Source of the DNA: an uncultured Candidatus Peribacteria bacterium
GTDB taxonomy: Bacteria > Patescibacteriota > Gracilibacteria > Peribacterales > Peribacteraceae
Assembly (NCBI GenBank): GCA_964517345.1
Contig: CAZFBZ010000001.1
Location: 7,767 to 47,493, forward strand
DNA: 39,727 nucleotides
Reading direction: 5' to 3'
Both the position numbers and the translations under genes were made by a program. The notes below the pieces were generated by a model. That model worked only from the letters and a program-made list of their open reading frames with translations, made no database searches and had not been told where the DNA came from. Each line of letters begins with the position of its first letter. The stretch's first letter is position 1. Of this stretch, positions 5,569-33,919 are shown in pieces.

Positions 5569-6996
<1,428 letters not shown>

Positions 6997-7027
6997 TCCG
7001 CGTCACCGTCCCTTTTCCGCACGCTCC

Positions 7028-7465: not shown

Positions 7466-7474
7466 GCCGCAGTC

Positions 7475-7783: not shown

Positions 7784-7865
7784 CCCGCAGTCGCGGGTTT
7801 TGCTCCAGTCAGAGTGACGTCTTAGGCCATTGACAGGGACTCACCTCTGCCTCACCCTCCGAACC

Positions 7866-8666: not shown

Positions 8667-8701
8667 TCTTGACCGGGCAGAGTGCCCGCCTAGACCCTTG
8701 A

Positions 8702-9031
<330 letters not shown>

Positions 9032-9087
9032 TCGGCGCACACCTTTTGTCTTCTCTTCCGGCCTGACCGCCGGTTCCCCTTCCTCCC

Positions 9088-9594: not shown

Positions 9595-9953
9595 AAGTCA
9601 CTTCCACCGACGTCGTCCGGGCATTGCTGGATCTCAGCCGCAACCTCCCCGCTCCGATGGAGTTCCTCCGTGGCGTTCGCGATGAGCTCACCAGGAAGAT
9701 CACCACCGAGGAGCAGACCGTCCATGCCGTCATCGTCACCCCGACGGGGGATGCCGGCGGACTCAAGGACACGGTCCTCAAGCTGCTCAGCCAGAAGTTC
9801 CCCGGCCGCCCGGTCGATCTGCAGGAGCAGGCCGACTCCACGCTCATCGGCGGCGCTGTTGTCCGTTTCGGCGACGAGCAGGTCGATATGAGCGTCCGCA
9901 CAGCACTCCAGCAGGCCGCCGATCAGTTCGCCTCGTCGGCGCGCGCATCCTGA
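9591..9953 (+). CDS. atpH: short ATP synthase delta (OSCP)-like subunit
   Basis: 120 aa. Its ATG overlaps the atpF stop (ATGA). The C-terminus [26 protein letters not shown] matches the conserved delta C-terminal motif. The N-terminal half is much shorter than the usual length of about 180 aa. Confidence 0.7.
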
Positions 9954-9975
9954 CATCCCCCACCCCCATCCGCTT

Positions 9976-11508
<1,533 letters not shown>

Positions 11509-11534
11509 GCTCCTCCTCCACCGCACTACCTCCC

Positions 11535-12467
11535 ATGGCACAGAGCCTCCGCGATCTCCGGCGCAAGATGAAGGCCATCAAGTCGACGAGACAGGTCACC
11601 AAAGCCATGGAGTTGGTTGCCGCTTCGAAGATGCGCCGCGCTGTCATGAACGCCCAGGTTCTGCGCCGCTACGCGCTGACCGCCTGGACGATTCTCCGCA
11701 AAATCGCGCACGCGCACCCGGGCCGCCACCCGTTCCTGGAAGTCCGCCCCGCCAAGCGCACGCTCGTCGTGGTGCTCACGTCCGACCGCGGTTTGTGCGG
11801 AAGCCTGAACACGCACCTCTTCCGCGCTGTGTCCCAGTACATCAAGTCCTCGAAGGAAATGCGCGCCGGTGCCGAGCTCGATTTCGTCGCTGTGGGCCGC
11901 AAGGGCCAGCAGTTCCTCTCCCGCGCCGGTCACAAGGTCGTCGCGGCGTTCCCGGCGCTCTCCAATCACCCGAAATTCAAGGATGCCCTGCCGGTTGCCC
12001 GCGTGGCGATCGATGGATTCCTCGAAGGAACCTACGACCACGTTGTGCTGATCTACAGCAGCTTCCTCTCCGCTCTCGTGCAGGAGGCGTCGGTCAAAGT
12101 GCTGCTCCCGTTCTCCGAAGACGAGCTCAAGGCGATGGTCACCCAGATGTTCCAGCGCAAGCGTCTCAGTAAAGAAGAAGAGATCGGCCTGGAGGCCAAA
12201 ATGCCGGACACCGAGTACGTGTTCGAGCCGACCGAAGCCGACGTCCTCAACCGCATCCTGCCCCAGCTCACCGAGCTGCAGCTGTATCAGGCGGTCCTCG
12301 AAACCACGGCCTCCGAGCACTCCGCCCGCATGGTCGCGATGCGCAATGCGTCGGACAATGCCAGCGACATCCTCGACGACATCACTCTCACCTACAACCA
12401 GACCCGCCAGGCAGGCATTACGGCTGAGCTGTCCGAGCTCTCCGCCAGCAAAGCGGCGCTCGAGTGA
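11535..12467 (+). CDS. atpG: F1 ATP synthase subunit gamma
   Basis: 310 aa. N-terminus LRDLRRKMKAIKSTRQVTKAMELVAASKMRRA and C-terminus NQTRQAGITAELSELSASKAAL. Confidence 0.95.
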   Translation: MAQSLRDLRRKMKAIKSTRQVTKAMELVAASKMRRAVMNAQVLRRYALTAWTILRKIAHAHPGRHPFLEVRPAKRTLVVVLTSDRGLCGSLNTHLFRAVSQYIKSSKEMRAGAELDFVAVGRKGQQFLSRAGHKVVAAFPALSNHPKFKDALPVARVAIDGFLEGTYDHVVLIYSSFLSALVQEASVKVLLPFSEDELKAMVTQMFQRKRLSKEEEIGLEAKMPDTEYVFEPTEADVLNRILPQLTELQLYQAVLETTASEHSARMVAMRNASDNASDILDDITLTYNQTRQAGITAELSELSASKAALE

Positions 12468-12544: not shown

Positions 12545-13444
12545 ATGTGCCTCATGCGTCAGATGGTGCAACTGGGCCGTGATGACATTGAAGTGGAGCG
12601 CGAAGGGGATCCCGACGGCGAAAAAGTGCTTTTCACGCACGGTCTTCCGGGCACCGCCCTGGAGATCGCCATTGCCAGCGCACTGGCCCGCAGAGGCGGC
12701 TATGAGGTGCTCGGCATCAGCCGGCGGGGGTACGGCCATTCCCGCTACCGGCCGACGTCCCTGGTTGAAACGGCTCGAGAGACGCCAAAGATCCTGGAGA
12801 AAATCGGGGTGAAAGATCCCGTGCATGCCATTGGCGTGTCTGCGGGCGGTGTCTATACGGCGGCGCTCGCACATGAGTGCCCCGATGCCCTCAGGTCGGT
12901 CACGCTGGTGAGCGCGCTGGCGCCTCCGGATCAGCCGGGCGTGATGGACCGGATGAACTGGAGTCACTATGCGATCCTCGGGCTCGCACGCAAGCTTCCC
13001 GCCTGTTTCCTCTCGCCCATTCTCTACTTCATGCGTCATCGGGCACTCAAGAACCCCGATGCACTGCTCCACCAGGTGAGGGACGAAGCGCCTCCGGGCG
13101 ATCAGGAGGTTCTGCGTGTCCCTGCCAACCACGAAGTATTGCGCCAGTCACTCATCCACGCGCTGCGCTGCGGATACAAAGGTCTGATGCAGGATATTCT
13201 CAATCTTGCGGGGCCATGGGGGTTCGATCCCAAAGACATCAAGCCGCATGTGGAGGTCTGGCACGGTACCGATGATCTGATTGTTCCCAAGGAGAGCGGC
13301 GTGTACTACGGCAGTTCACTGAATTCCAAGAATCTGCATATGCTCGATGGCCGCGGGCATTTCATCGGCGCGGATGAGGCGGTTCTGGAGCAGATCCTCA
13401 CTACCGCACGGGACCGGTGCGCGGTTGGTACAACGGCTATTTAG
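12545..13444 (+). CDS. alpha/beta-fold hydrolase
   Basis: Nucleophile elbow GVSAGG. Candidate Asp in WHGTDDLIVP and candidate His in GRGHF. The start is ambiguous (ATG at 12545, 12554 or 12563). A TACGAT box at 12541-12546 favours 12554. Confidence 0.8.
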   Translation: MCLMRQMVQLGRDDIEVEREGDPDGEKVLFTHGLPGTALEIAIASALARRGGYEVLGISRRGYGHSRYRPTSLVETARETPKILEKIGVKDPVHAIGVSAGGVYTAALAHECPDALRSVTLVSALAPPDQPGVMDRMNWSHYAILGLARKLPACFLSPILYFMRHRALKNPDALLHQVRDEAPPGDQEVLRVPANHEVLRQSLIHALRCGYKGLMQDILNLAGPWGFDPKDIKPHVEVWHGTDDLIVPKESGVYYGSSLNSKNLHMLDGRGHFIGADEAVLEQILTTARDRCAVGTTAI

Positions 13445-13516
13445 AATACAATTTTTGTTCATAATTTGCCTCTTCAATTAGCTCTCCATGAGTATTTTTC
13501 CTAAAATTATCCGGTC

Positions 13517-14032
13517 ATGATCGATCAGCAGTTAGCCGATGTCACGCGCCTCCTCTCGTCTGCCGATGCGCCCGAGAGCCCTGGGGGTGCCGAAACCGCC
13601 CGTCAATTGCGCTATGCGGACTCCCCGGTGCGTTTTGCGCTCGAAGTGATCCGCGGCGATCTCGATGTTCTCCTGCTGCATCCGCACAACAATGTGCGCA
13701 AGCGCTTTCCCCCGCGTGCCGGTCTTACGACTGCAGAGCTCGTCGGACACAGTCTTCGACGCGAGGCGAGCCTGGCGCGCGCCGAGGAAACCGGCGGGCA
13801 GGAGATGACCGCAGAGGATCTCGCCTGTGTCATGGCGGCGATCCGCATGCCCCTGGAAGCGCTCTGTGCGACGCCCGAACGTCTCCGCTACGTCCGGTCG
13901 CAATTGCCCCGTATCCGGGAATTCGGCGAGGGGCCGGTGCGGGTCCTGACTCCGGCAGACTTCGACGCTGTACAGCTCCAGTGGCTCGAAACCCACATCC
14001 AGCTGAGCCGCATGCTGGCATCCCTGCTGTAA
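13517..14032 (+). CDS. hypothetical protein, paralog 1 of a tandem pair
   Basis: 171 aa. It is preceded by the most AT-rich intergenic stretch I noticed in the window, with a TAAAAT box at 13502-13507. The C-terminal 70 aa align with the next ORF (ERLRYVRSQLPRIREFGEG..QLQWLE). Confidence 0.6.
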   Translation: MIDQQLADVTRLLSSADAPESPGGAETARQLRYADSPVRFALEVIRGDLDVLLLHPHNNVRKRFPPRAGLTTAELVGHSLRREASLARAEETGGQEMTAEDLACVMAAIRMPLEALCATPERLRYVRSQLPRIREFGEGPVRVLTPADFDAVQLQWLETHIQLSRMLASLL

Positions 14033-14076
14033 CGATTGACGCTTTAGTGCCGGTGGGTCACGCTGTGCCGCCGTTT

Positions 14077-14730
14077 ATGGACGACCTGGAACTCTACACA
14101 ATTATCGGCCTGATGGATGGACGCGAGGACGGGCACAACCCGCTTGCGGCTAACGTGATCAGCGATCTGGACTGTCCGTGGACGGTTGCCGCGCAATTGC
14201 TGCTCAGTATTCGTGAGCAGACACATCAGATTCTTCATGACACCCCGCCCCATATTCTCGCGGCGCTTTCCAGGCGTCCCCTGGACGGCGAGAAGTTGCA
14301 GCGCCGCCTGTTCCTCCTTCTGCGGCAGGTCACTATGGATATGCGCGTGGCTCTAGCCCTGCAGCAGGAGGACGGCGATATTCCTGACCGCCCCCTGACG
14401 CGCGAGCAGCTGTTCTGCCTGTTTGCCGCCGTGGAGACACCTGATGAAGCTCTGCGTTCGCCCGCCGAACGCGAGCGCTACGTCCGAGGCCAATTGCCCC
14501 GGATCCGTGAGCAGGGGAACGGCAGGGCGAGTATCACCGGGGTGCGGGAATATTTTTTGACAGTGCAGCAGTGGCTGGAAGCCTACGTCATTGCCGTTGC
14601 GAGGATTCTCAATGAGGATGGCGATGAGGGAGGAGACTACGGCGCTGACACCGAAAACGACCCTGCCCCGGACGAGGGCGATTGGGTCGATTCGGACGGC
14701 GATGATGAACGGTGGAAGACCGGCGCGTAA
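14077..14730 (+). CDS. hypothetical protein, paralog 2 of a tandem pair, with acidic C-terminal tail
   Basis: ORF 13981..14730 trimmed to the ATG at 14077 (a GTG at 14047 is also possible). Shares ERERYVRGQLPRIREQGNG..VQQWLE with the preceding ORF. The tail reads NEDGDEGGDYGADTENDPAPDEGDWVDSDGDDERW. Confidence 0.6.
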   Translation: MDDLELYTIIGLMDGREDGHNPLAANVISDLDCPWTVAAQLLLSIREQTHQILHDTPPHILAALSRRPLDGEKLQRRLFLLLRQVTMDMRVALALQQEDGDIPDRPLTREQLFCLFAAVETPDEALRSPAERERYVRGQLPRIREQGNGRASITGVREYFLTVQQWLEAYVIAVARILNEDGDEGGDYGADTENDPAPDEGDWVDSDGDDERWKTGA

Positions 14731-18273: not shown

Positions 18274-18918
18274 TTATCCAGCAGGCTTTTTTCCGCAGTC
18301 CTTCCCGTATGATTGATTCTTGCTGACGCGGTCGAGCATCACGGCCATCTCGGCCCGGTTCACCGGATCATTGGGGCGCACCGCGCCGGTTGTAGCGTCT
18401 CCGGCGAGAATGCAGCGATCCGCGGCCGCCTGCACGCCGTAGGAGTACCAGCTGCCTGGAACCGTATCGATGAACGGGGGAGCGGCGTCGGTTTTCTCCA
18501 GTACGAAGATGCGGGTGATGAGCACGGCGGCTTCCGCGCGGCTGATGCGGTCGTCGGGACGTGCAAGGCACGGATGCTCGCCGTAGCAGTTGCCGTCGCC
18601 GCGCACCCAGCCCTGGCGGGCCGCCTCCTCTATTGTCGCGTAATGCCAGTCGTCAGGGGCACTGTCGTCGAAGCTCTGGAGCAGGGGCGGCTGCTGCGGG
18701 GATGTCCCGCTCACGGCCAACGTGAGCTTCAAGAACTCTGCGCGCGTTGCCGGGCTCCCGGGACGGAAGGTTTTTTGCGAGGCATCGAGTGCGCCTTTTG
18801 TCTGCAGCGAGGCGAGTGCCGGCGCGTACCAGGCGTCGCCGGGCACGTCCGCATACCCCGCAGCGAAACCGAGGGAGGGGAGCAGGAGAAGCGAGAGTGC
18901 GACTGATCGCTTACGCAT
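18274..18918 (-). CDS. secreted protein with three S-layer homology (SLH) domains
   Basis: ORF 18274..18954 trimmed to the ATG at 18918, giving signal peptide MRKRSVALSLLLLPSLGFAAG. Three SLH repeats: YADVPGDAWYAP..ATRAEFLKL, FDDSAPDDWHYAT..ISRAEAAVLI, FIDTVPGSWYSYG..VNRAEMAVML. Confidence 0.8.
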   Translation of the reverse strand: MRKRSVALSLLLLPSLGFAAGYADVPGDAWYAPALASLQTKGALDASQKTFRPGSPATRAEFLKLTLAVSGTSPQQPPLLQSFDDSAPDDWHYATIEEAARQGWVRGDGNCYGEHPCLARPDDRISRAEAAVLITRIFVLEKTDAAPPFIDTVPGSWYSYGVQAAADRCILAGDATTGAVRPNDPVNRAEMAVMLDRVSKNQSYGKDCGKKPAG

Positions 18919-18972
18919 GGAAATGACCGTACCAGCGCGTGACGGGCGGGGCAAAGTACAGTCTGCTTAACG

Positions 18973-19001: not shown

Positions 19002-21101
<2,100 letters not shown>

Positions 21102-21129: not shown

Positions 21130-22245
21130 TCAAGCTTTCTCTTTGAGCTTTTCGTAGAGGGCGAGGGCTTCGCCGACGGCTTTGTCCATGTTGATGTAGC
21201 GGTAGGTCCCGAGGCGTCCGGCGAACGACACGTTCGGCAGCTTGGCGGCTTCATCCGTGTACTTTTTAAGCAGCTCGCGGTTCTTTGTGTTCGGCACGGG
21301 GTAGCTGGCCTCGCCCTCCCACGACGGGAACTCGCGGCAGATGACCGTGTGCTCGCCGTCCTCGCGCATGTAGAACTTCTTGAACTCCGTGATTCGCGTG
21401 AATTTCACGTCATCTTCGGTGTAGTTCACGACGGCGTTCGGCTGATAGCTGGGCATCTTGAGCGTTTCTAGATCGAAGTGCATGCAGCGGTATTCCAGCT
21501 TCCCGAAGCGGTATTCAAAGAACTGGTCGATGCAGCCCGTGAAGATCAGATGCTTGTGTTCGGGCTTGTCTTTCATGGCGAAGAAATCCACGCCCATCTG
21601 CACCGTGATGTTCGGATGGTCGATCATCTTCTCGAAGATCGGCGTGAAGCCGTCGACCGGCATGCCCTGGAACTGGTCGTCGAAGTAATAGGGGACAGTG
21701 TTGTATCGGATCGGCAGGCGCTCCAGCACGGCCGCATCGAGTTCTTCCGGATACAAGTCCCACTGCTTCTTGGTGTAGTGCTTCACGAACGCGTCGTAGA
21801 GATCGACGCCGAACTTCGAGACGACCACATCGCGCGAGTTTTTGATCTCTCCGGTGTCCTCGCGGATTTTGGCCAGGAACGCCTTCAGCTCAGTTTCATC
21901 CTTGAGATTGCTGCCGTAGAACATATTCACCGTGTTCAGGTTGATGGGCACCGGGTAGTACTTGCCCTTGTAGTAGCTGATGACCTTGTGGCGGTAATCG
22001 TTGAATTTGGTGAAAGTGCAGAGGTAATCAAAGACCTTCTTGTCGTTCGTATGGAAGATATGCGGGCCGTATTTCTGCACGATGATGTCGTCAGGCCCCT
22101 TGTAGTCGAAGCAGTTGCCGCCGATCTGATCCTTCTGGTCGATGACCAGGATCTTCTTGCCGTCGCGCGCCAGATTGTCCGCCAGCGTCAATCCCGTGAT
22201 GCCTGCGCCGACAATCAAAAAATCATATGCACCGGGTTTTGTCAT
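21130..22245 (-). CDS. glf: UDP-galactopyranose mutase
   Basis: 371 aa. FAD fold YDFLIVGAGITGLTLA, plus GGNCFDY, GPHIFHT, YTKKQW and the C-terminal GRLGTYRYINMD, all typical of Glf. Confidence 0.92.
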   Translation of the reverse strand: MTKPGAYDFLIVGAGITGLTLADNLARDGKKILVIDQKDQIGGNCFDYKGPDDIIVQKYGPHIFHTNDKKVFDYLCTFTKFNDYRHKVISYYKGKYYPVPINLNTVNMFYGSNLKDETELKAFLAKIREDTGEIKNSRDVVVSKFGVDLYDAFVKHYTKKQWDLYPEELDAAVLERLPIRYNTVPYYFDDQFQGMPVDGFTPIFEKMIDHPNITVQMGVDFFAMKDKPEHKHLIFTGCIDQFFEYRFGKLEYRCMHFDLETLKMPSYQPNAVVNYTEDDVKFTRITEFKKFYMREDGEHTVICREFPSWEGEASYPVPNTKNRELLKKYTDEAAKLPNVSFAGRLGTYRYINMDKAVGEALALYEKLKEKA

Positions 22246-22327
22246 AGAGGGACTCTACACCGCCGCCCAAAAAGAGAGAAGGCCGCTGCGACCCGGTTTT
22301 TGCCTCTGGGAAGCCGTTTGGACCCCT

Positions 22328-23461
22328 TCAGGCGGCCGCTTTCGCTCGGGTCCGCTTCGGTGCCGCTGCGGCCTCTGTCTTCGCCGTTTGGATCAGCTTT
22401 TCGTACAATCTTTCGTGGCTCTCGCCCATCGCTGCCAGGCTGTAGTTTTTGACCACGGCGTCGCGGCTGGTCGGGCGCAGGTTCTCCAGGTCTTTTTTAT
22501 CCAGCGCCACCAGCGCCTGATAAATCTCCTCTTCGTCGCATTCCTTCAGCAGATAGCCCGTCTTCCCGGGGATGATGATCTCGGGCGTCCCGCCTTTGTT
22601 CGTTGCCATCACCGGGGTTCCGCATGAGAGCGACTCGACCGGCACAAGCGAGAACGCTTCGTCCCAGCGGGTCGGCAGCACGGTCAGGTCCGCTTGCGCG
22701 TAGTGCGAGGCGATCTCCTTCTGGCCCTTCACGAAGCCGACCCATTTGATGCATGCGTCCTCCTTGGTTGCGCGGATGAGCAAGGGTTTGAGGTGGCCCG
22801 ATCCGACGATGCTCAGCACTACCTTGCGCTTCTGAGCGACGCGCCGGACGGCCTTGATCAGCACATCGATGCCTTTCTCCGGCATGATTTGTCCGACGAA
22901 CAGAAGATTGAGCGTGTCATTCTCCTTGCGCGGCTCCGGGCAGAAGACGCTCTCGTCGATGCCGGCATATTCCAGAAACACCTTCGAAGCCGGCAGCTTG
23001 GTGCGCTTCTGCACCTGTTTGAGGATGAATTTGCTGATGCAGTTCACGCCTGCGATCTTATTCAGATGCAGCTTGAGCATGGTGAAATGGCAGTACCACA
23101 CTTTATCGAGCACGTTGTGGTGTGACCCGACCGCTACGTGGAGCGTGACGAGGACGGGAGCACCGATCTTCCGCACGTACCCGAAGAGGAAATCGAACGT
23201 GCCGCACGGCCAGTGGTAATGGATGATGTCCGGACGGAACTCGCGGATTTTTTTGAGCAGTTCCATGGGGTTGTGTACCAGCGGCGCCAGGCCAAGCACG
23301 GACGTGGACCGCGCCTGCACGAGGAACTCGACGGATTCTTTTTTCCACTGCGCTTCGGTGACCATCAGCACGTCATGCTTTCTGCTGAGCATGTGCTTGT
23401 ACAGATTCAGACAATAGGACGCGATGCCCCGCTGGCCGGATGTCAGGATCACGATTCTCAT
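22328..23461 (-). CDS. GT-B fold glycosyltransferase (GT4-like)
   Basis: ORF 22328..23503 trimmed to the ATG at 23461 (MRIVILTSG..). C-terminal half LLFVGQIMPEKGIDVL..VLPTRWDEAFSLVPVESLSCGTPVMATNKGGTPEII shows the EX7E-type motif. Confidence 0.85.
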   Translation of the reverse strand: MRIVILTSGQRGIASYCLNLYKHMLSRKHDVLMVTEAQWKKESVEFLVQARSTSVLGLAPLVHNPMELLKKIREFRPDIIHYHWPCGTFDFLFGYVRKIGAPVLVTLHVAVGSHHNVLDKVWYCHFTMLKLHLNKIAGVNCISKFILKQVQKRTKLPASKVFLEYAGIDESVFCPEPRKENDTLNLLFVGQIMPEKGIDVLIKAVRRVAQKRKVVLSIVGSGHLKPLLIRATKEDACIKWVGFVKGQKEIASHYAQADLTVLPTRWDEAFSLVPVESLSCGTPVMATNKGGTPEIIIPGKTGYLLKECDEEEIYQALVALDKKDLENLRPTSRDAVVKNYSLAAMGESHERLYEKLIQTAKTEAAAAPKRTRAKAAA

Positions 23462-23534
23462 GTGGATGGCGGTAGGGGGACTCGACGAGTTTCGCCAATG
23501 CAAGCGACGACGCTCACAGAGGCGCTCTACGGCG

Positions 23535-23564
23535 AATGTAGCAAGGCGCCCCGCACGCGGTCAA
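23535..23564 (-). promoter_or_regulatory. candidate internal promoter TTGACC-N18-(TGc)TACATT upstream of the GT4 gene
   Basis: The minus strand reads ttgacc gcgtgcggggcgccttgc tacatt. It would give a leader of about 70 nt to the ATG at 23461. Confidence 0.4.
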
Positions 23565-23620
23565 CAGACCCCATGATCGTGGCTTTATGAAGCCATTTTT
23601 GGTGTCCGTAAAACCGGTGG

Positions 23621-25141
23621 TCAGCGGATGTCCTCGCTGTTCTGCGTGACGGCTTTCTTGGTCAGGAAGATCGACAGGAAGTTGACGCAGTAGATCCAGC
23701 CCATGAGCAGCAGCCCGCGGGAGGCGAAACGCCGTCCCGAAGAGTAGACGAAGAACCTGAATGAAAATTTGATTTTGCCGATGTCCCGGAGCCTGCGCGC
23801 TGTGGAGGCGTCCTCCCCGTAGAAATCGATCGAGGTGTCGAAGCCGCCCATCGTCATCAGCGCTTCTTTTTTGGCGACGAAGTTGCCGCCAACGACCTGC
23901 GTTCCCAGCAGGGAACTGAGCCGGTACAGAACCTTCCAGGAGTACCAGATGAACCGGCGGCGCACGTAGGACAGATCATAATAATCATAGGGGCCGCTGA
24001 GGCAGATGAGCGTGGGATCGCGCTTGAACTTCTCACGGATGACGTCGAACCAGCTGTCGGGCAGTTGGGTGTCTGCGTCCAGCGAAGCGTAGAAGTTTCC
24101 CCGCATTTCCGTCAGTCCGCGCTGGCGCGCGTAGGGCAGGCCTTTTTGGGGTTCGTAGATAACGCGGACCTGCGGGAACGATTTGGCGATCTGAGCGGTG
24201 CCGTCGGTGCTCGCATTGTCGACAACAATCACCTCCAGCAGTTCGGGATGGCGCTTGCGGAAAATACTTTCCAGGCAGGTGCGGATATAGCTTTCCTCAT
24301 TGAAGGCGGGAATGATGATGGAGATGCGCATCGGTTCCGAGCTGGGAGGCGCTTCAGGCCTCCAGGGGACGCCGGAGAGCCAGTAGAGCGGTTTCTGAAA
24401 GCGGTGCGGGACAAAGCCGATGACGAGCGAGGGCAGCGAGAACACGATGATGCCGACGACGAACCAGAACTCGCGGACGGGCAGGCCGACGAACAGGATC
24501 GGCAGCATCAGCACGAACGGCAGCGCCTGCAGAGCCACAAGCGCCGGCATCGTGTACGACTTCAGCGTCGGGCGGTTCGACGAGCCGGTGCGTTTCTCCA
24601 GCATGCGCCGTTGAACGCTGAACTGCGTACAGAGCAGGAACACGGCCAGGACCGTGCCGCCCATCCACGGCGTGCCGGCGATCGCCATGCCCAGGATGCA
24701 GCGCAGGGCGTGAGGCAGGGCGTTCGCTGCGAATTCGATATACGGCCAGCGCTTGGCTCCCAGGCTGTACAGTACGTTTGCGAGGATAAAGAGAATGAAC
24801 AACAGGAAGATGTTGTAGCCCAGGAAGGCATGTGCGTAGGACAATCCCGCGACAATACTGAACGCCACGTACAGCCATGCCTGCCACAGCCTCACGCGGC
24901 CCGAGGCGATCGGCCGGTGACGCTTCGCCGGATCTTCGCGGTCCAGTGAGACGTCGGCGATGTCGTTGAGTGCATACAGGCCTCCGTACAGAATGATATT
25001 GAACCCGATGTAGACAATCGCGAGACGGGGCAGCAGCTCCAGCAGCGGCATCTTGCCGAGCAGGATCGCCGAGGCGATAACCGTCGCGTAGTTGAAATGG
25101 CTGTGGAAGCGGATGAAGCCGAGGATGTCCCGAAGTTTCAT
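23621..25141 (-). CDS. fusion protein: N-terminal UbiA-family polyprenyl transferase domain plus C-terminal GT2 (GT-A) glycosyltransferase domain
   Basis: ORF 23621..25255 trimmed to the ATG at 25141 (MKLRDILGFIRF..). The UbiA part (about 25141-24332) is polytopic with the first Asp-rich motif YALNDIADVSLDREDPAKRHRPIASG. The GT2 part (about 24331-23621) has ISIIIPAFNEESYIRTCLESI..VIVVDNASTDGT and ASLDADT. It is one uninterrupted frame. Confidence 0.85.
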   Translation of the reverse strand: MKLRDILGFIRFHSHFNYATVIASAILLGKMPLLELLPRLAIVYIGFNIILYGGLYALNDIADVSLDREDPAKRHRPIASGRVRLWQAWLYVAFSIVAGLSYAHAFLGYNIFLLFILFILANVLYSLGAKRWPYIEFAANALPHALRCILGMAIAGTPWMGGTVLAVFLLCTQFSVQRRMLEKRTGSSNRPTLKSYTMPALVALQALPFVLMLPILFVGLPVREFWFVVGIIVFSLPSLVIGFVPHRFQKPLYWLSGVPWRPEAPPSSEPMRISIIIPAFNEESYIRTCLESIFRKRHPELLEVIVVDNASTDGTAQIAKSFPQVRVIYEPQKGLPYARQRGLTEMRGNFYASLDADTQLPDSWFDVIREKFKRDPTLICLSGPYDYYDLSYVRRRFIWYSWKVLYRLSSLLGTQVVGGNFVAKKEALMTMGGFDTSIDFYGEDASTARRLRDIGKIKFSFRFFVYSSGRRFASRGLLLMGWIYCVNFLSIFLTKKAVTQNSEDIR

Positions 25142-25145
25142 CGTG

Positions 25146-25604
25146 TCAGCGGAGAAGGAAGGACGCAGTCGCGACAGCAATGATGCCGCCTGCCAGAGCG
25201 CCGCCGATGACATCGTGCAGATGGTGGTGGCCCAGGCGGATCCGCGACCAGGCAACCCCGAGGACGATGGCGGCTGACAACCATGAGAGCAGCATATCCG
25301 GATGCACCAGCGAGAACGAGACGGCGAAGGCCGCGGCGCGCGCGGTGTGGATGCTGGGGAAGCTGCCGGCGTCGTAGCGGCCGTAGAGGCCTTTGTCTGG
25401 ACGCGGGATCGGGCGGGCGGTGGGATAAATCACTTTGAAGGCGCCGCAGAGAACCTCCGTGAGCAGCAGCGAGCCCAGTACCGGCATCCAGATACCGCTG
25501 ATGAGCCGTTCCAGCAGCAGTGCCGCGGGCAGATACACCGTCATCGTTCCGAAGGACGTGATTTCGGACGCGAACGTGTCGATAAGAGAAGATCGTGCGG
25601 TCAT
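25146..25604 (-). CDS. PAP2-superfamily (acid/lipid) phosphatase, membrane-bound
   Basis: 152 aa. All three PAP2 motifs are present: KVIYPTARP (KxxxxxxRP), FPSIHT (PSGH-like) and SRIRLGHHHLHDV (SRxxxxxHxxxD). Its stop lies 4 nt before the UbiA::GT2 start. Confidence 0.85.
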   Translation of the reverse strand: MTARSSLIDTFASEITSFGTMTVYLPAALLLERLISGIWMPVLGSLLLTEVLCGAFKVIYPTARPIPRPDKGLYGRYDAGSFPSIHTARAAAFAVSFSLVHPDMLLSWLSAAIVLGVAWSRIRLGHHHLHDVIGGALAGGIIAVATASFLLR

Positions 25605-25631: not shown

Positions 25632-26978
25632 TCAATCCTCGTCGACCTCGCCGATGTGGTCCCGCAGGACGTACTTGTCGAGGTTCTCTTTCCCGAGGGC
25701 CTTGATGATCTCGGGGATGGCGTCGTTGTAGGAGATCTGCTTCTGCTTTCCGGCCTTCATGTCGCGCAGAATGATCGTGTTTTCCTTCACCTCGAGCTTG
25801 CCGAGCAGCAGCGTGAAGCGCGACTCGAATTTGTCGGCCAGGCGCATCTGGCTCTTGAGGCTCGCCTCGCCGAGGGCACCGACGGTGTGCACGCCCTTCT
25901 CGCGGAGCTTGCTCACGAGAAGCAGACATTTCTTCTTGGCCTCGGGTCCCAACTGGGCGACGAACACGTCGACCTGGTCCTTGTTCGGGACCGTGACGCC
26001 CGCCTCCTTCATGTGCCAGATAACGCGCTCCACGCCCCCCGCGAAGCCCACGCCCGGCGTCGGCTTGCCGCCGAGCAGCTCGATCAGGCCGTCGTAGCGT
26101 CCGCCTCCGCCAATGGCGTTCTGTGCGCCGGAGCTGGAATCCCAGAATTCGAAGACGGTTTGCGTGTAGTAATCCAGTCCCCGCACGAGGCCCGGATTCG
26201 GCGTGTATTCGATACCGAGTTCATCCAGGTACTCCAGCAGCGTCGCGTGGAATTTCTTGCTCTCGTCGTTGATGAACTGGTCCATCTTCGGCGCGTTTTT
26301 CAGGAGGATCTGCGTGTCCTCCTCTTTGGAGTCGAGGAGACGCAGCGGGTTGTGCTGCAGGCGCGCGACGTCCTGCGCGGGCAGGTGACGCTCCTTGCCG
26401 ATGAAGTAGTCCTTGAGGGCGGCCGTGAAGTTTTTGCGATCCTCGGGCGTGCCGATGTTGTTGATCTGCAGCTTGAGGCGGTCGAGGATCTTCAGGTCGC
26501 TCAGCACCTTGGTGACAACGTGGATCAGCTGCGCGTCCAGGCTCGGATCGCGGAGTCCGATGACCTCGAAGTCGAACTGGTTGAACTGCCTGTAGCGGCC
26601 TTTCTGCGGACGGTCATAGCGGAAGCACTGGCCGATGGCATACAGCTCGACCGGCTGAGGCAGCTGCTGCATGCCGTGCTCGATGTACGAACGGCAGATA
26701 CCGGCGGTGAACTCCGGGCGGAGCGCGAACTGGGCCGACTTTCCCTCGTCATCCTTGCGTCCGACGACGGTGAAGAGCTCTTTCTCCACGATGTCCGTGT
26801 GCTCACCGATACCACGCTGGAACACGCCCTGGTGCTCGAACATCGGGGGGTCGATGCGTTTGTAACCGGCCTGGCGGGCGCGGTGACGCACGGCCTTCTT
26901 GATGTACGTCATGTACTGATGATCCTCGGGGAGGGCATCGTGGGTGCCTTTGGGCGTGCGGAAGAGTGGTTCGGACAT
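25632..26978 (-). CDS. hisS: histidine--tRNA ligase
   Basis: 448 aa. PKGTHDALPED, class II motif 2 CFRYDRPQKGRYRQFNQFDFEVIG, and motif 3 / HisA-HisB elements AIGGGGRYDGL and GVGFAGGVERV. Confidence 0.96.
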   Translation of the reverse strand: MSEPLFRTPKGTHDALPEDHQYMTYIKKAVRHRARQAGYKRIDPPMFEHQGVFQRGIGEHTDIVEKELFTVVGRKDDEGKSAQFALRPEFTAGICRSYIEHGMQQLPQPVELYAIGQCFRYDRPQKGRYRQFNQFDFEVIGLRDPSLDAQLIHVVTKVLSDLKILDRLKLQINNIGTPEDRKNFTAALKDYFIGKERHLPAQDVARLQHNPLRLLDSKEEDTQILLKNAPKMDQFINDESKKFHATLLEYLDELGIEYTPNPGLVRGLDYYTQTVFEFWDSSSGAQNAIGGGGRYDGLIELLGGKPTPGVGFAGGVERVIWHMKEAGVTVPNKDQVDVFVAQLGPEAKKKCLLLVSKLREKGVHTVGALGEASLKSQMRLADKFESRFTLLLGKLEVKENTIILRDMKAGKQKQISYNDAIPEIIKALGKENLDKYVLRDHIGEVDED

Positions 26979-27649: not shown

Positions 27650-27728
27650 TGGGGCGAGCGACGGGACTCGAACCCGCGACCCTCAGGACCACAACCTGAT
27701 GCTCTAACCAAGCTGAGCTACGCTCGCC
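27650..27728 (-). tRNA. tRNA-His (anticodon GUG) with encoded G-1 and 3' CCA
   Basis: Minus strand: G-GCGAGCG-TA-GCTC-AGCTTGGTTA-GAGC-A-TCAGG-TTGTGGT-CCTGA-GGGTC-GCGGG-TTCGAGT-CCCGT-CGCTCGC-C-CCA. This folds into a full cloverleaf. The anticodon loop is TT-GTG-GT, and the extra 5' G pairs with discriminator C73, which is the tRNA-His hallmark. Confidence 0.93.
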
Positions 27729-27868: not shown

Positions 27869-30800
27869 TCAGGCGGCGGTGCCAGTGGTCGCCGGGGGCG
27901 GCGAATCCGGGGCTTTGGGCTCGGTGAGGCTGTCGGCACGGACCACGAAGGCCACATCGCTGTCCTTCTTCTTTTGGGGTTCAACGGGAACGGGAGCGGG
28001 TTCTGCTTTCAGGATCGGCTTTTCTTCCATCACAGGCTGGGCCGGGGGTGTGACGACCGGTTCAGGTTTCTTGTCCGCGGCGGGCGCCGGTGCGGGATTG
28101 GCAGCGATGTTAACCGGAGCAGGCGCAACAGGAGCCGGGCTCGGAGCAGGAGTGACGGGTGCGGGGGCAGGGGATGGAGCGGACGGGGTTGCGGGCGATG
28201 TCGGCGGAGTCAGGGGGGTGCCCGGAGTGTCCGGTGCATCGGTGCCGTCTTCGTCATCATCCGTATCATTGTTTGCGGGCGCACCCGGAACTCCAGCAGC
28301 CGCTTGTTCCTTGCGCTTGCGCTGGTTCTCGCGATAGCGCATGCGCTTCCTGCGCTTGCGTTCCTTCTCGCGCTCGATGCGTTCCAGATCCTCCTTGGAG
28401 ATGGCTGTTGGCGCGGCAGGAGCAGCAGCTGTCGTCGACGCAGGAGCGACTGCCTTCTGCATCACCGGAGGAGCCATTTCTTTTTTGACCTGCGCAGGAG
28501 CGCTGGGAGCCGGCTGAGACTGCACGGGCGGTGCAGCCTGGATTGTCGGCTTCTCTTCTTTCTTTTCCGGCGCCGGAGTCGCGTTCACGACCGGAGGCTG
28601 AACCGGCGCGGGTGCCGACTGCTCAGGCTTCTTGTCGATGACCGGAGCCGGAGCCGGTGCGGGTTCCGGTTTCTTCTCGACGATCGGCGCGGGCGCAGGC
28701 GTCGGGTCCGGCTTTTTTTCCACGACCGGAGCAGGCGCTGCGGGCGCAGGTTCGATCTTCGGCTCAGGCTTCTTCTCCACGACCGGCGGGGGAGTGGTCG
28801 GCAGGGGAGTCTCGGTTTTCACCTCCGGTTTGGGCTCGGGTTTTTTCTCAACGACCGGTGCCGGAGCCGGCTCGGCACTCGCGGGAGGTGGCGCAGGAGG
28901 CGTCGGCGTTGTAGCAGGCGTTTCTTTCTCCAGCCCCTTGCGAAGCCACGGTGGCGTGTCATCGGCCGGAGCGGTGTCTGTGGGGGGCTCTTTGCCCGGA
29001 GCCGCAACGGCCTTCTGCGAGAGTGCGGCGAGAGCCGCATCGGGAGGCGGCGGCGGAGCGTCGGTTGTTTTCGGTTTGGTCGTCTCCAGACCTTTCTGCA
29101 GCCAGGGCGGAGTGCTGTCTGCGGATGCCGAGGGTGACGGAGCGCCATCTGCTGGTGCAGAGGCGGCGGGAGGCGGCGGAGGCGGGGGGCCGGACTCCAC
29201 GGGGGTCTTCTGTGCATCGTCCCGCAGCCAGGGCGGAAGCGAATCTTCTTCCGACGGGAGAGCCGGTGTCGGAGGTTCCACTTTCGGCTCGGGCGCAGGC
29301 GCGGGTGCCGAAGCAGGAGCAGACACTGTCGTCGCAGGAGCGGCAGCCGTGACAGGTTCAGTGCGGGGCTCAGGGGCAGGGGCCGGAGGTTCGATTTTCG
29401 GCTCCGGCTTCGGCTCCGTTTTTTTCTCAGGCATCGGAGCGGTCTTTGGCGTCGGCGTCGGAGCGGGTTCTTTTGACGCCGCGGGAGCCGGTGCGGAACC
29501 GTCGGACGACAGGCCTTTCTTCAGCCAGCTCGGTGCGGCCTTTACGTCGACGAAATCGCTCGGCGGGGGCGTCAGTGCTTTTTCTTTCTTCTTCGGGGGT
29601 GTCGGTGCCTCGTCTTCGCTCGGCTTCTCGCTGGGGGTGGAGCGCTTGAGTTCAAGCAGCGGCGCGGCGGATTCGACGATCTCGGTAGGTGTGCCCTCTT
29701 TTTTCTTTTTGTCCGTGATTGTGGCATCCAATCCGTCGCCACGACGGATCAGACGCATGATGCCTGCGACGAGCACGACTCCCAGAAGCAACGCACCCAG
29801 TCCGACGCCAAGAAGCTTGGCAATTGACAGGAGCGTGCCGCCGATTCCCCCGCCGGACGGTGCTGGAGCGGATGGTGCGCTTGACGACGAGGCTGCGGCT
29901 GCGGATGCCGAGGAAACCGTGGAGCCCGTTGCGGCAGCGGCGCCGAGTCCCGAGAGCGAGATGGTCTTGGTCCCCTGTGAGATGATGCGAGCGGTGGTGA
30001 TGTTGCGCACAGTGACGGTAACGGTGTAGTCCCCGTCAGAGCGGTAGGTATGCACCGGCTCCGTGATGAGGCTCTGCGTGCCGTCGCCGAATTGCCAGTG
30101 GTAGAGAAGTTCGTTCGCGTTCGCCCCGACGAGCGGGAATATGAAGCCGATGTCCCCGCTGCCGCGGTTATCGATGCCGATCGTGCCGGGGATCTGGTCC
30201 GTTGGAAGCTCCGGTGTTCCCGCCCCCTCGTCGGGCGTGCCGTCCGGTCCCGGCGTTCCATCCGGATCCGGGGCGGGTTCGGCGTCGGTCGGGATAATGG
30301 CAAGCGACTGCTGCCGTCCGTCTTCGGCAAAGAGACGCATGGACCGCTCCGTTCTGTGGACGAGCCACAGGTGCAGGGCGTTCCCGTTCGTGCGGAAGAA
30401 CGCCTGGGAGTTGTCCTGGTCGTCCGCGGCTTCGCCGTTGCCGTTCGTGTCGCGGTTCGTATCCGTATCCAGATTGATCGCCCCCTCCGGCGCGAGTGGC
30501 GGCGTCAATTTGACGATGCTGCGTCCTGCGGGGAGTTCGATGCGTCCGTCGACAGATGAGGGATCGGTTGTGACGAGAGCGCCTTCCGGAATCTCCACTG
30601 CTTCCTCCTGAGTGTTACGGGGCTCGACGGTGACGTTGATGATCTTGCGTACATGATCCCCTGTCTGCGGAAAATCCGCGGATGCGTCGATCTGATACTC
30701 GCCCGGTTCCGTCAGGCGCAGACGGAACAACGGCTCCCGTCCGGCTTCCACGAAATTACGGTCTTTGGTCACAATCCAGCTCAGCTGCACTGGCTCGTTG

Positions 30801-30943
30801 TCGATCAGTGCGAGCGCCTCAAATACCTCGCCTGCGGCGAAGCGGACGGTTTCCTGGTCGATCTCGTTCTGCGCCTGAGCCAGCGGCAGAGCCGCCAGAA
30901 GCGGCAACGCGAGGCCGGCGAGGAGAGCGGGCAGACGGCGCAT
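27869..30943 (-). CDS. large single-pass membrane protein: signal peptide, extracellular Ig/PKD-like region, TM helix, approximately 625-aa Pro/Ala/Lys/Glu-rich low-complexity tail
   Basis: 1024 aa. Signal peptide MRRLPALLAGLALPLLAALPLAQA. PKD-type motif YHWQFGDGTQSLITEPVHTYRSDGDYTVTVTV (about 29954-30160). TM LLSIAKLLGVGLGALLLGVVLVAGIM (about 29750-29842) followed by RLIRRG..DKKKK. The tail carries 4 PPWLxKGL-type motifs, 5 VVEKKPEP repeats and a KR-rich helix. Confidence 0.85.
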   Translation of the reverse strand: MRRLPALLAGLALPLLAALPLAQAQNEIDQETVRFAAGEVFEALALIDNEPVQLSWIVTKDRNFVEAGREPLFRLRLTEPGEYQIDASADFPQTGDHVRKIINVTVEPRNTQEEAVEIPEGALVTTDPSSVDGRIELPAGRSIVKLTPPLAPEGAINLDTDTNRDTNGNGEAADDQDNSQAFFRTNGNALHLWLVHRTERSMRLFAEDGRQQSLAIIPTDAEPAPDPDGTPGPDGTPDEGAGTPELPTDQIPGTIGIDNRGSGDIGFIFPLVGANANELLYHWQFGDGTQSLITEPVHTYRSDGDYTVTVTVRNITTARIISQGTKTISLSGLGAAAATGSTVSSASAAAASSSSAPSAPAPSGGGIGGTLLSIAKLLGVGLGALLLGVVLVAGIMRLIRRGDGLDATITDKKKKEGTPTEIVESAAPLLELKRSTPSEKPSEDEAPTPPKKKEKALTPPPSDFVDVKAAPSWLKKGLSSDGSAPAPAASKEPAPTPTPKTAPMPEKKTEPKPEPKIEPPAPAPEPRTEPVTAAAPATTVSAPASAPAPAPEPKVEPPTPALPSEEDSLPPWLRDDAQKTPVESGPPPPPPPAASAPADGAPSPSASADSTPPWLQKGLETTKPKTTDAPPPPPDAALAALSQKAVAAPGKEPPTDTAPADDTPPWLRKGLEKETPATTPTPPAPPPASAEPAPAPVVEKKPEPKPEVKTETPLPTTPPPVVEKKPEPKIEPAPAAPAPVVEKKPDPTPAPAPIVEKKPEPAPAPAPVIDKKPEQSAPAPVQPPVVNATPAPEKKEEKPTIQAAPPVQSQPAPSAPAQVKKEMAPPVMQKAVAPASTTAAAPAAPTAISKEDLERIEREKERKRRKRMRYRENQRKRKEQAAAGVPGAPANNDTDDDEDGTDAPDTPGTPLTPPTSPATPSAPSPAPAPVTPAPSPAPVAPAPVNIAANPAPAPAADKKPEPVVTPPAQPVMEEKPILKAEPAPVPVEPQKKKDSDVAFVVRADSLTEPKAPDSPPPATTGTAA

Positions 30944-32527: not shown

Positions 32528-33919
32528 ATGCGCAATACACACACCAACATTTTTGCTTTTATCATGGGCTCCATCGGTATTCCAGCTTTTCTGCTGACAG
32601 CGACTGTTGCCCATGCTGTTGCAGAAAATCCGTTCACGGCGGGCATACCCTTTGAGCAGGATCTCGTGATCACCGCTTATTACTCACCGCTCCCGGATCA
32701 GTGTTGCTACGTAAAGGGGAGTTTTGAGGATGATGTCATTCTCAATGGCGAAGGGCACCATGGCGCCGACGGGACTGCGGTGTATCCCGGCATGGTTGCC
32801 GCCCCGCCCCGGTATCCCTTTGGCACACGCATTGTCGTGCCCGGCATCGGCACGGTGACAGTGCATGATCGGGGAGGCGCGATTCAGGAACAGCAGAAGA
32901 GCCATCGTCTGGACGTGTGGGCAGGCGTCGGCGAGGAGGGTCTTGCCCGTGCTCTTGCCTTCGGCGTGAAGCGCGTTCGCGCGACTGTCTACCCTCCGGG
33001 CACTACGCAGCCTGCCGAGGAAATCGCCCTCGATGCCCTGCCCGCCCCTTTGCAGATTCTTCAGCCGTATGCCATTGGCGGATCTGTGCTTGCGCGTCTG
33101 CGCGCGACGTTCGGTTCGCAGAGTCTGAGCGCGCTGCTCGTCCAAAAATTTCTCGTCGAGATGGGTTACATGAATGAGAAAGCCACCGGCTACTTCGGCC
33201 AGGCCACGCGTTCCGCGTTGGCGGCGCTCTATCGCGATCTCGGCTTGGAGGAAAGTCCCGATGCCGTCACCGAACGCTCTGCCGCATTCCTGGAGGCGCT
33301 CCGCCGCCAGCAGGGGGCGAAAGAGCCGCTGCCCGCGATTGTCGACGCCACGAGTCCGCGGTCGCATATCGCTGAAGTCCAGCGCACGATGCGGTTTCTC
33401 GATCTCTACCGCGGACGCACCAGCGGCCACTATGACGACACCCTCTTCCGCGCCATCGCCAATTTTCAGAAGAGCGCCGGACTGATCGCCGATGATTCCT
33501 CGCCCGGCGCGGGACGCATCGGGCCCAAAACGCGCATGCTCCTCGCGTCGGCCTGGAAGCGCCGCATGGTGAGCCAGAAGGCGGAGCACATCCTGATGGT
33601 CGCTGAAATCGAGCGCATTGCGGCAAAACGCATGGGCATCACCGCATTCTTTGGCTTCGGGCAGAAAGGCGATCAGGTGAAGGTGCTCCAGCGGCTGCTG
33701 GCCTCGGCTGGTCTGCTGCCTGCGGATCAGGTGACGGGCCTGTTTGGCCCTATGACGCAAAAAGCCCTCGTCGCGTTCCAGATGAATGCCGGCATCATCA
33801 CGTCCGCATCCGATGATGGCGCCGGATACGTCGGGCCCGCCACGCTCGCCCGCGTCCGCACCGGAATGCGCGATCATCTCTACCGCCTCGTCCGCGCCCA
33901 GGGCTGGGACGCCCTCTGA
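32528..33919 (+). CDS. secreted cell-wall protein: 3D (MltA/YuiC-like) domain plus three PG_binding_1 repeats
   Basis: 463 aa with a signal peptide (..LLTATVAHA). 3D-type segment ITAYYSPLPDQ..NGEGHHGADGTAVYPGMVAAP..PFGTRIVVPGIGTVTVHDRGGAI..RLDVWAG. Three repeats of the type VQKFLVEMGYM..ATGYFGQATRSAL, VQRTMRFLDLY..SGHYDDTLFRAI and VKVLQRLLASAGLL..VTGLFGPMTQKAL. Confidence 0.8.
   Translation: MRNTHTNIFAFIMGSIGIPAFLLTATVAHAVAENPFTAGIPFEQDLVITAYYSPLPDQCCYVKGSFEDDVILNGEGHHGADGTAVYPGMVAAPPRYPFGTRIVVPGIGTVTVHDRGGAIQEQQKSHRLDVWAGVGEEGLARALAFGVKRVRATVYPPGTTQPAEEIALDALPAPLQILQPYAIGGSVLARLRATFGSQSLSALLVQKFLVEMGYMNEKATGYFGQATRSALAALYRDLGLEESPDAVTERSAAFLEALRRQQGAKEPLPAIVDATSPRSHIAEVQRTMRFLDLYRGRTSGHYDDTLFRAIANFQKSAGLIADDSSPGAGRIGPKTRMLLASAWKRRMVSQKAEHILMVAEIERIAAKRMGITAFFGFGQKGDQVKVLQRLLASAGLLPADQVTGLFGPMTQKALVAFQMNAGIITSASDDGAGYVGPATLARVRTGMRDHLYRLVRAQGWDAL

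Follow-up and report, generated by a model that had tools for sequence, protein, structure and literature searches.

What would a bacterium of the Candidate Phyla Radiation (CPR) build with four clustered genes whose enzyme families recall the arabinogalactan locus of mycobacteria? The question is raised by a stretch of 39,727 nt (39.7 kb; hereafter the window, in whose numbering all coordinates are given) from contig CAZFBZ010000001.1 of an uncultured Candidatus Peribacteria bacterium (GenBank assembly GCA_964517345.1). Between hisS and gyrB, this window encodes a PAP2-family membrane phosphatase, a UbiA-superfamily membrane enzyme fused to a GT2 glycosyltransferase (UbiA::GT2), a GT4 glycosyltransferase and the UDP-galactopyranose mutase Glf. 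In Mycobacterium tuberculosis, Rv3806c (DPPRS), Rv3807c (PAP2), Rv3808c (GlfT2) and Rv3809c (Glf) are arabinogalactan genes, and a preliminary description of the window had drawn the parallel with them, proposing a polyprenyl-phosphate-linked furanose pathway with galactofuranose (Galf) and perhaps arabinofuranose (Araf) or ribofuranose (Ribf). Such a pathway is a reasonable reading, given the Rv3806c-type UbiA domain, the intact PAP2 gene beside it and a genuine Glf. The interpretation that we favor, with moderate confidence, is a lineage-specific envelope-glycan cassette combining the synthesis of a lipid-linked Ribf with a supply of UDP-Galf and two Leloir glycosyltransferases.

All four co-directional minus-strand open reading frames (ORFs) of the preliminary description were recovered, and their families were confirmed by profile searches (PF01040, UbiA, 62.7 bits against a cut-off of 34.2; PF00535, GT2, 104 bits; PF01569, PAP2, 62.4 bits; PF03275, Glf, E = 7.8e-74). 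The host is a non-actinobacterial member of Candidatus Peribacteria, within the CPR, as judged from GyrB, which shares 80-88% identity with proteins annotated to Candidatus Peribacteria, Peribacteraceae or Peregrinibacteria; its non-actinobacterial nature had been anticipated. Intergenic gaps measure 4 nt between PAP2 and the fusion, 159 nt between the fusion and GT4, and 82 nt between GT4 and Glf. On the PAP2 side, 27 nt separate the cassette from the co-directional hisS upstream; on the Glf side, the convergent gyrB follows after 28 nt. The features of the locus are as follows, PRPP standing for phosphoribosyl pyrophosphate and TM for transmembrane.

25632..26978, minus strand: hisS, conserved upstream flank of the hot spot (TIGR00442, 428.9 bits)
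25146..25604, minus strand: PAP2-family membrane phosphatase, 152 aa (PF01569, 62.4 bits)
23621-25141, minus strand: UbiA::GT2 fusion gene, 506 aa from a likely ATG at 25141 (ORF 23621-25255)
24407..25141, minus strand: UbiA-superfamily domain of the fusion, putative PRPP:polyprenyl-phosphate 5-phosphoribosyltransferase, aa 1-245, 8-TM, Rv3806c-like
24332..24406, minus strand: linker from TM8 to the GT2 domain, aa 246-270, including a short juxtamembrane helix
23621..24331, minus strand: GT2 domain of the fusion (GT-A fold, inverting, Leloir type), aa 271-506, with a C-terminal amphipathic helix
23462..23620, minus strand: spacer that separates the fusion gene from GT4, carrying a TTGACC-18-TACATT site that resembles a promoter
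22328..23461, minus strand: GT4 glycosyltransferase (GT-B fold, retaining), 377 aa, likely ATG at 23461 (ORF 22328-23503)
21130..22245, minus strand: UDP-galactopyranose mutase Glf, 371 aa (TIGR00031)
19020..21101, plus strand: gyrB, conserved convergent downstream flank of the hot spot (GyrB 80-88% identical to Peribacteria proteins)

The argument turns on the UbiA domain, which most likely belongs to the group of Rv3806c/DPPRS-type phosphoribosyltransferases, as a distinct eight-helix subfamily, and not to the quinone or heme prenyltransferases. In a sequence search of the PDB (phmmer), it matched 8j8j (Rv3806c) with E = 1.5e-14 and archaeal 4-hydroxybenzoate-type prenyltransferases with E = 8e-4 and ~1e-3. 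The best NCBIfam models (50-66 bits) were three for decaprenyl-phosphate phosphoribosyltransferases and PRK08238, the latter matched via the UbiA part at its C-terminus, ahead of the quinone, heme, digeranylgeranylglyceryl phosphate (DGGGP) and EboC models (26-40 bits). The UbiA and GT2 domains were modelled separately with AlphaFold2 (AF2). The UbiA model, with a predicted local distance difference test (pLDDT) score of 89.3 and eight TM helices, shows the UbiA fold with a cytoplasmic cap and found 8j8j_A as its best Foldseek match (TM-score 0.75, E = 1.2e-7) and AfUbiA as the next (TM-score 0.71). Identity amounts to 23-24% with Rv3806c and to 14-15% with E. coli UbiA, MenA and CyoE. In a neighbor-joining tree built on Poisson distances, the domains of the window, its sister genome, P0269 and the metagenomic loci L094-L096 form a clade with 97% bootstrap. 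Next to this clade stands the group of Rv3806c and a HAD-UbiA protein, and the E. coli enzymes UbiA, MenA and CyoE lie outside both. The phylogenetic placement called for by the preliminary description thus puts the domain beside Rv3806c-type enzymes and not beside quinone or heme prenyltransferases, although the node that joins the subfamily to the Rv3806c clade to the exclusion of E. coli UbiA and MenA has a bootstrap of only ~49%.

The active site points in the same direction. The ligands of Mg2+, ribose, pyrophosphate and 5'-phosphate in Rv3806c were described with its structure (PMC10994848). Those of Mg2+, ribose and pyrophosphate are kept in the window (Rv3806c/window: N73/N59, D77/D63, Y70/Y56, K87/K73, R90/R76, Y138/Y125, K143/K130, R22/R11), with two conservative changes (Q135 to N122 and K208 to R178), and the domain carries the NDIADVSLDREDPAKRHRPIASG motif and matches the pattern NDxxDxxxD followed by HPxKxxRP(I/L)AxG. 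True prenyltransferases bind the Mg2+ of the prenyl diphosphate through a second Asp-rich motif. This motif is absent from the UbiA domain, where basic residues take its place as in Rv3806c (VQRRMLEKRT in the window and AGKRYAEL in Rv3806c, versus YDTQYAMVDRDDD in E. coli UbiA).

The topology sets the domain apart from Rv3806c and bears on the fusion. Rv3806c crosses the membrane nine times, with its N-terminus and its TM8-TM9 loop (CL4) in the cytoplasm, so its C-terminus lies outside the cell; the window domain lacks TM9 and, because it ends after TM8, has a cytoplasmic C-terminus. The loss of TM9 and the resulting position of the C-terminus therefore make an in-frame fusion to a soluble GT2 domain possible, and a nucleotide-sugar-dependent GT2 must work in the cytoplasm. 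Standalone relatives in L095, L096 and P0269 also stop after TM8 and, on this sequence comparison, the loss of TM9 is older than the fusion. One member of the eight-helix subfamily, at 2470-3270 of L096, has NGIAD in place of NDxxD in its first Asp-rich motif and adjoins metX/metW without a PAP2 gene; it may be inactive or have another function.

The neighborhood of these relatives ties the subfamily to PRPP, because the window domain and its relatives in L094 and L095 are paired with PAP2, as Rv3806c is with Rv3807c, and because a PRPP synthetase gene (prs) lies upstream in L094. Rv3807c removes the 5'-phosphate from the ribose lipid. The PAP2 protein of the window has intact phosphatase motifs (KxxxxxxRP, PSxH and SRxxxxxHxxxD), present as KVIYPTARP, PSIH and SRIRLGHHHLHD. 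A metagenome scan for the eight-helix subfamily yielded three close relatives, L094, L095 and L096; in L094 (38% identity) and L095 (32%), a PAP2 gene with the same three motifs lies directly upstream on the same strand. At 2-1637 of L094 (metagenome contig Ga0172381_10195175), the C-terminal half of prs, PAP2 and the 8-TM UbiA-like gene follow each other head to tail on one strand. The prs fragment scored 78.7 bits with NF002095 and 74.3 bits with TIGR01251, and all eleven of its best models are ribose-phosphate diphosphokinases; this arrangement may represent a dedicated PRPP-to-lipid module. PAP2 of this type was found at 0 of ~50 more distant UbiA loci, and the PAP2-UbiA pairing is specific to the eight-helix subfamily. 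Peribacteria have been reported to make PRPP, isoprenoids through the mevalonate pathway (for a purpose called uncertain), peptidoglycan and S-layer proteins (PMC4736985).

The fusion itself could be suspected of being an assembly or frameshift artefact, or its UbiA part of being a dead membrane anchor for the GT2 domain, all the more as no further UbiA::GT2 fusion turned up in large databases and as, in the window, an out-of-frame TGA precedes the internal ATG by 23 nt. We give these explanations almost no weight: they are largely refuted because the frame is shared across lineages and evolves under purifying selection. A Logan contig assembled independently matches the window at 99.97% identity without gaps, and the order hisS-PAP2-UbiA::GT2 (506 aa)-GT4-Glf, with gyrB convergent, recurs in the sister metagenome-assembled genome (MAG) GCA_964460365.1 and in three Logan assemblies. 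The identical, indel-free frame is thereby present in five independent assemblies of two lineages; a fifth, short Logan contig extends over no more than GT4 and the beginning of the following gene. Between the window and the sister MAG, at a synonymous divergence (dS) of ~0.35-0.44 for the compared genes and ~0.43 for the fusion, amino acid identity reaches 99.3% for HisRS, 89.5% for PAP2, 95.3% for the fusion, 92.6% for GT4 and 95.4% for Glf. All compared cassette genes are under purifying selection, with ratios of nonsynonymous to synonymous divergence (dN/dS) of 0.05-0.15 (PAP2 0.147, fusion 0.054, GT4 0.081, Glf 0.054). Within the fusion, the GT2 part has the lowest dN/dS (0.037), followed by the UbiA part (0.063), which keeps its catalytic N/D/K/R residues, and by the linker of 25 residues (~0.15); the linker has low pLDDT in the AF2 model, one short helix at residues 250-256 and no indel relative to the sister.

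Outside these two lineages, the fusion appears to be rare. Searches of 5.8 billion clustered proteins yielded no other fusion of UbiA with this GT2 family, nor was one seen among the best 150 of 1.84 billion representatives or in a scan of 185,579 GTDB species genomes, which returned GT2 relatives only and in which the window's species was also not recovered; these searches bear on this GT2 family, and fusions with more distant GT2 families lie beyond their reach. Two-stretch matches in the representative library, considered as further fusions, were shown by Pfam to be GT2-GT2 proteins. A literature search around polyprenyl-phosphate phosphoribosyltransferases brought up no UbiA-GT2 fusion, and one for DPPRS in Patescibacteria found nothing. 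An internal translation start for the GT2 domain was also considered and is unsupported, as no Shine-Dalgarno usage was seen in the genome and leaders are C/T-rich. Pyrimidine-rich leaders (tcctctccc, ccttctcc, cccccaccccc) occur in the 30 nt upstream of the starts at 26978, 25141, 5626, 9976, 11535 and others, and the organism seems, from its sequence, to do without canonical Shine-Dalgarno-based initiation.

It is in the glycosyltransferases that the cassette parts from the mycobacterial locus. In its AF2 model (pLDDT 94.8), the GT2 domain has a compact GT-A fold, carries DAD and GED motifs and bears an amphipathic helix at its C-terminus. Its best Foldseek match was PcManGT (6yv7; TM-score 0.72, 25% identity), followed by ppGalNAc-T2, WrtF and K4CP; PcManGT is an archaeal enzyme, a membrane GT2 mannosyltransferase of Pyrobaculum calidifontis, and the likeness is uninformative on donor and acceptor. 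GlfT2 was absent among the 33 PDB sequence matches and the listed top 50 Foldseek matches of this ~236-aa domain, and the parallel with GlfT2 (Rv3808c) has to be abandoned in favor of a small GT2 native to Peribacteria. Downstream of hisS, L154 has three standalone GT2 genes in tandem; their products share 45-51% identity with the domain over its full length, and M271 of the fusion aligns with their start codons. The standalone GT2 downstream of hisS in L150 shares 37% identity with the domain. The GT2 domain has the family and the position of standalone Patescibacteria GT2s such as those of L154, whereas a UbiA-type partner occurs only in the window lineage. Members of the wider Patescibacteria family (45-53% identity, full length) are fused elsewhere to a second GT2, a C-terminal multi-TM domain, an N-terminal PAP2_C domain or a polysaccharide deacetylase (variants seen in P0002, P0003/5/16/22, P0011 and P0035-40). 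Homologs often lie near DedA/VTT, Bac_transf and Wzx genes, and this context fits an enzyme acting on lipid-linked acceptors at the membrane.

GT2 and GT4 are the commonest glycosyltransferase families, and the window GT4 matches PF00534, PF13692 and PF13439 and, in the PDB, generic GT4 enzymes. A conserved GT2-GT4 pair across Patescibacteria was considered and rejected, the GT4s beside GT2 homologs being only 22-26% identical to the window GT4. Glf is, on sequence evidence, a true UDP-galactopyranose mutase, as had been predicted: it scored 349.5 bits with TIGR00031 (cut-off 303.75) and matched solved mutases over residues 6-368 (3hdq 343 bits, E. coli 1i8t 284, M. tuberculosis 1v0j 269). In the CAZy classification GT2 enzymes are inverting and GT4 enzymes retaining, and bacterial Galf is mostly beta-linked; because of this, we infer that the GT2 domain is the better candidate for the use of UDP-alpha-D-Galf.

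Comparison with relatives shows that the cassette occupies a hot spot of variable glycosyltransferase content. In relatives whose GyrB is 85-88% identical, the hisS-gyrB interval has other glycosyltransferase genes: a single GT4 in L149, a GT4 and a 238-aa GT2 in L150, and in L154 (GyrB 88%) a gene without assignment and three tandem GT2 genes of 236-240 aa. The GT4s of L149 and L150 are 22% identical to that of the window and not orthologous to it. Because the content of the interval differs in this way among relatives, the cassette is lineage-specific; the four-gene synteny on which the preliminary description had made its proposal depend is kept in the immediate sister lineage and does not extend to these relatives. 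The most economical origin would have a PAP2-UbiA pair landing between hisS and a resident GT2, after which the UbiA frame would have come to run into that of GT2. hisS is probably co-transcribed with PAP2 and the fusion.

How, then, would the enzymes work together? In the scheme that we propose, PAP2 and the UbiA domain would form a first module that makes a lipid-linked pentofuranose. The UbiA domain would move 5-phosphoribosyl from PRPP to polyprenyl phosphate, as do Rv3806c and ORF15 of C. youngae, and PAP2 would strip the 5'-phosphate to give polyprenyl-P-ribofuranose, or else regenerate the polyprenyl-P acceptor. As the second module, Glf would supply UDP-Galf; the inverting GT2 domain would be the better candidate for beta-Galf addition, and the retaining GT4 would act as the other Leloir transferase, helping to assemble the glycan, at the cytoplasmic face, on its lipid carrier. 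One would expect as the outcome a glycan of the surface or of a secondary cell wall, with Galf and probably also Ribf among its sugars. The data establish which genes are present, that the fusion is real and conserved, the families, the topology and the PAP2 (and prs) neighborhood kept in relatives; PRPP as donor, the identities of the sugars, the transferase that takes UDP-Galf and the final polymer we infer.

The closest known system is, by analogy, the PRPP-based pentofuranose pathway of Citrobacter O antigens, Pseudomonas pilin (Araf) and mycobacterial arabinan (Kelly et al., 2024, PNAS, PMC11127046). There, a UbiA-type synthase (PPPRS) and a phosphatase yield polyprenyl-P-Ribf, epimerases act optionally, a flippase exports the product and a GT-C enzyme transfers it; in C. 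youngae, ORF15 is a PPPRS with a fused HAD phosphatase, accompanied by a MATE flippase and a GT136 GT-C enzyme (PMC11127046). The window shares with these systems a (putative) UbiA-family phosphoribosyltransferase in a surface-glycan locus, beside a candidate phosphatase partner, with PRK08238 as the best NCBIfam model. It differs from them in its separate PAP2 gene, eight helices in place of nine, the C-terminal GT2 fusion and the CPR host, and by the lack of a flippase (MATE or SMR/GtrA), a GT-C enzyme (GT136-like) or an epimerase in the 39.7-kb window.

Several observations weigh against this scheme, and they feed the alternatives in unequal measure. Every NCBIfam DPPRS score of the UbiA domain is far under its curated cut-off (NF008978 62.4 bits versus 207, NF008977 54.7 versus 234, NF006088 66.2 versus 351), and the node toward Rv3806c has the modest bootstrap given above. 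Of the three 5'-phosphate ligands, Y70 is kept and two differ, K28 being replaced by N17 (S or T in relatives) and Y157 by H144. A different donor or acceptor is possible because the subfamily is separate, lacks TM9 and has K28 and Y157 replaced; lipid handling may differ as well, since TM9 walls the decaprenyl-phosphate cavity in Rv3806c. The domain might accordingly act as a genuine prenyltransferase, or its phosphorylated donor or acceptor might be a different one, the likeness to Rv3806c then reflecting shared ancestry only. The 97% bootstrap of the subfamily, the narrow Foldseek margin between Rv3806c and AfUbiA and the PlsC-type acyltransferase gene that follows the UbiA relative P0045 could be cited in its favor, but the second Asp-rich motif that would hold the Mg2+ of a prenyl diphosphate is missing, the pyrophosphate-binding K/R cluster is kept and a PRPP synthetase gene stands directly upstream of PAP2-UbiA in L094, all of which makes us regard this alternative as rather unlikely. 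Still less probable is an arabinogalactan core of the mycobacterial type, with decaprenyl-P-arabinose made via DPPRS and PAP2 and a galactan made from UDP-Galf by a GlfT2-like GT2. The cluster does resemble Rv3806c-Rv3809c in that the same four Pfam families are grouped, PAP2 stands beside a UbiA-type gene with the Mg2+, ribose and pyrophosphate ligands kept, and Glf is genuine. It departs from that locus in having an extra GT4, another gene order, a UbiA domain without TM9 and with K28 and Y157 replaced and, instead of GlfT2, a 236-aa generic GT-A enzyme that is a resident Peribacteria paralog with no GlfT2 among the matches listed. DprE1/DprE2 and Aft/Emb GT-C arabinosyltransferases are likewise missing from the window, and the host is a CPR bacterium. 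The mycobacterial resemblance first proposed therefore stands at the family level for three genes and falls for GlfT2, DprE1/DprE2, the arabinosyltransferases and the gene order. Among the window ORFs, Pfam revealed no DprE1/DprE2, other epimerase, GT-C enzyme or flippase, and the window has no PRPP synthetase gene, points that count against a complete pathway of our own scheme too; because DprE1/DprE2 were not found there, nothing points to Araf, and the Araf component once envisaged is dropped. The preliminary description had itself seen no other arabinogalactan or mycolate genes in the window, and Pfam found none among the window ORFs.

A stronger challenge, to which we grant a real if clearly smaller chance, is that the hot spot simply brought together two unrelated modules, PAP2-UbiA::GT2, transcribed with hisS, and GT4-Glf, PAP2 serving in polyprenyl-diphosphate recycling. 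As the hot spot gathers varied glycosyltransferase genes, a functional link between PAP2-UbiA::GT2 and GT4-Glf can only be presumed, and L149, L150 and L154 show how different such sets can be. The best matches of PAP2 in NCBIfam and the PDB are undecaprenyl-diphosphate phosphatases and LpxE (6ebu, E = 2.5e-4, best in the PDB), and PAP2 enzymes usually face outward. The G+C content of Glf, 0.547, is the minimum of the cassette, PAP2 having 0.638 and the rest of the window 0.617. A promoter-like TTGACC-18-TACATT site precedes GT4 at 23564-23535, its hexamers kept in the sister within a region that is 91% identical, and behind the stop codon of the fusion lies a small hairpin, GGCTT-CATA-AAGCC. 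GT4-Glf may, as a lead only, be a second transcription unit with its own promoter; promoter-like sites in the window are no more numerous than chance, and terminator-like sites show a modest excess (9 found versus 4.8 +/- 2.4 expected). Against two unconnected modules speak the tight, co-directional spacing of the four genes, their retention as a unit in the sister lineage and the specificity of the PAP2-UbiA pairing for the eight-helix subfamily. A last possibility concerns the fusion within the envelope-glycan cassette that we favor: polyprenyl-P-ribofuranose(-5-P) might be handed directly from the UbiA domain to the fused GT2, making the fusion more than a tether to the membrane, and be glycosylated there, for example with Galf supplied through the adjacent Glf, or the GT2 might draw on this lipid pool to make a second donor of the polyprenyl-P-sugar type. 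We consider this tentative extension improbable at present.

The genes around the cassette complete the description of the window. Most are housekeeping genes, coding for ATP synthase, a class II aminoacyl-tRNA synthetase, CtpA, a P-type ATPase, peptidoglycan-binding proteins and a VirD4-like ATPase. Surface or contact genes are also among its neighbors: a small S-layer homology (SLH) domain protein at 18274-18954, in agreement with the preliminary description, and, at 27869-30943, 32528-33919 and 35735-38344, genes for a 1024-aa proline-rich protein with a PKD domain, a peptidoglycan-binding-repeat protein and a VirD4/TraG-like coupling ATPase. Of the relatives, L150 additionally encodes a TrbC/type IV secretion system pilin gene, and L149 a 744-aa SLH protein with PAP2 and vanadium-chloroperoxidase-like domains. 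A tRNA-His (GTG) gene at 27650-27727 lies ~670 nt upstream of hisS (25632-26978) on the same strand. The ATP synthase operon (5626-12467) has the unusual order beta, epsilon (probable), a, c (probable), b, delta (probable), alpha, gamma; the positions of epsilon, c and delta were deduced from L149 and L150, both of which have the same order. Between atpG and the P-type ATPase gene, the region 12545-14730 holds an alpha/beta-hydrolase gene and two ORFs without a Pfam match; all three are missing in the sister genome (L009 12900-13017), which marks a second strain-variable spot.

CPR/Patescibacteria, whose genomes are tiny, need contact with host cells, and to our knowledge their envelope glycans are essentially uncharacterized. 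The value of the cassette lies mainly in the lead that it offers to enzymology, and it does not by itself overturn current understanding. It delineates a distinct eight-helix branch among the Rv3806c-like enzymes, one that has a conserved PAP2 partner of its own and, in a single relative, prs upstream, and it provides a rare natural fusion of an Rv3806c-like enzyme with a Leloir glycosyltransferase. A separate PAP2 and a putative 8-TM synthase fused to GT2 would constitute a new architecture for the first two elements of the pathway. If direct hand-over from the UbiA domain to GT2 did occur, it would amount to a ribose-primed lipid-linked glycan or glycolipid undescribed in bacteria, and either this or the second-donor variant would be a new route of envelope glycan initiation in CPR. 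The hisS-gyrB hot spot would diversify surface sugars among close Peribacteria, which could bear on host attachment and phage recognition. Ultimately, the cassette would carry the PRPP-dependent lipid-linked pentofuranose pathway into the CPR, beyond actinobacteria and the O-antigen and pilin systems of Gram-negative bacteria.

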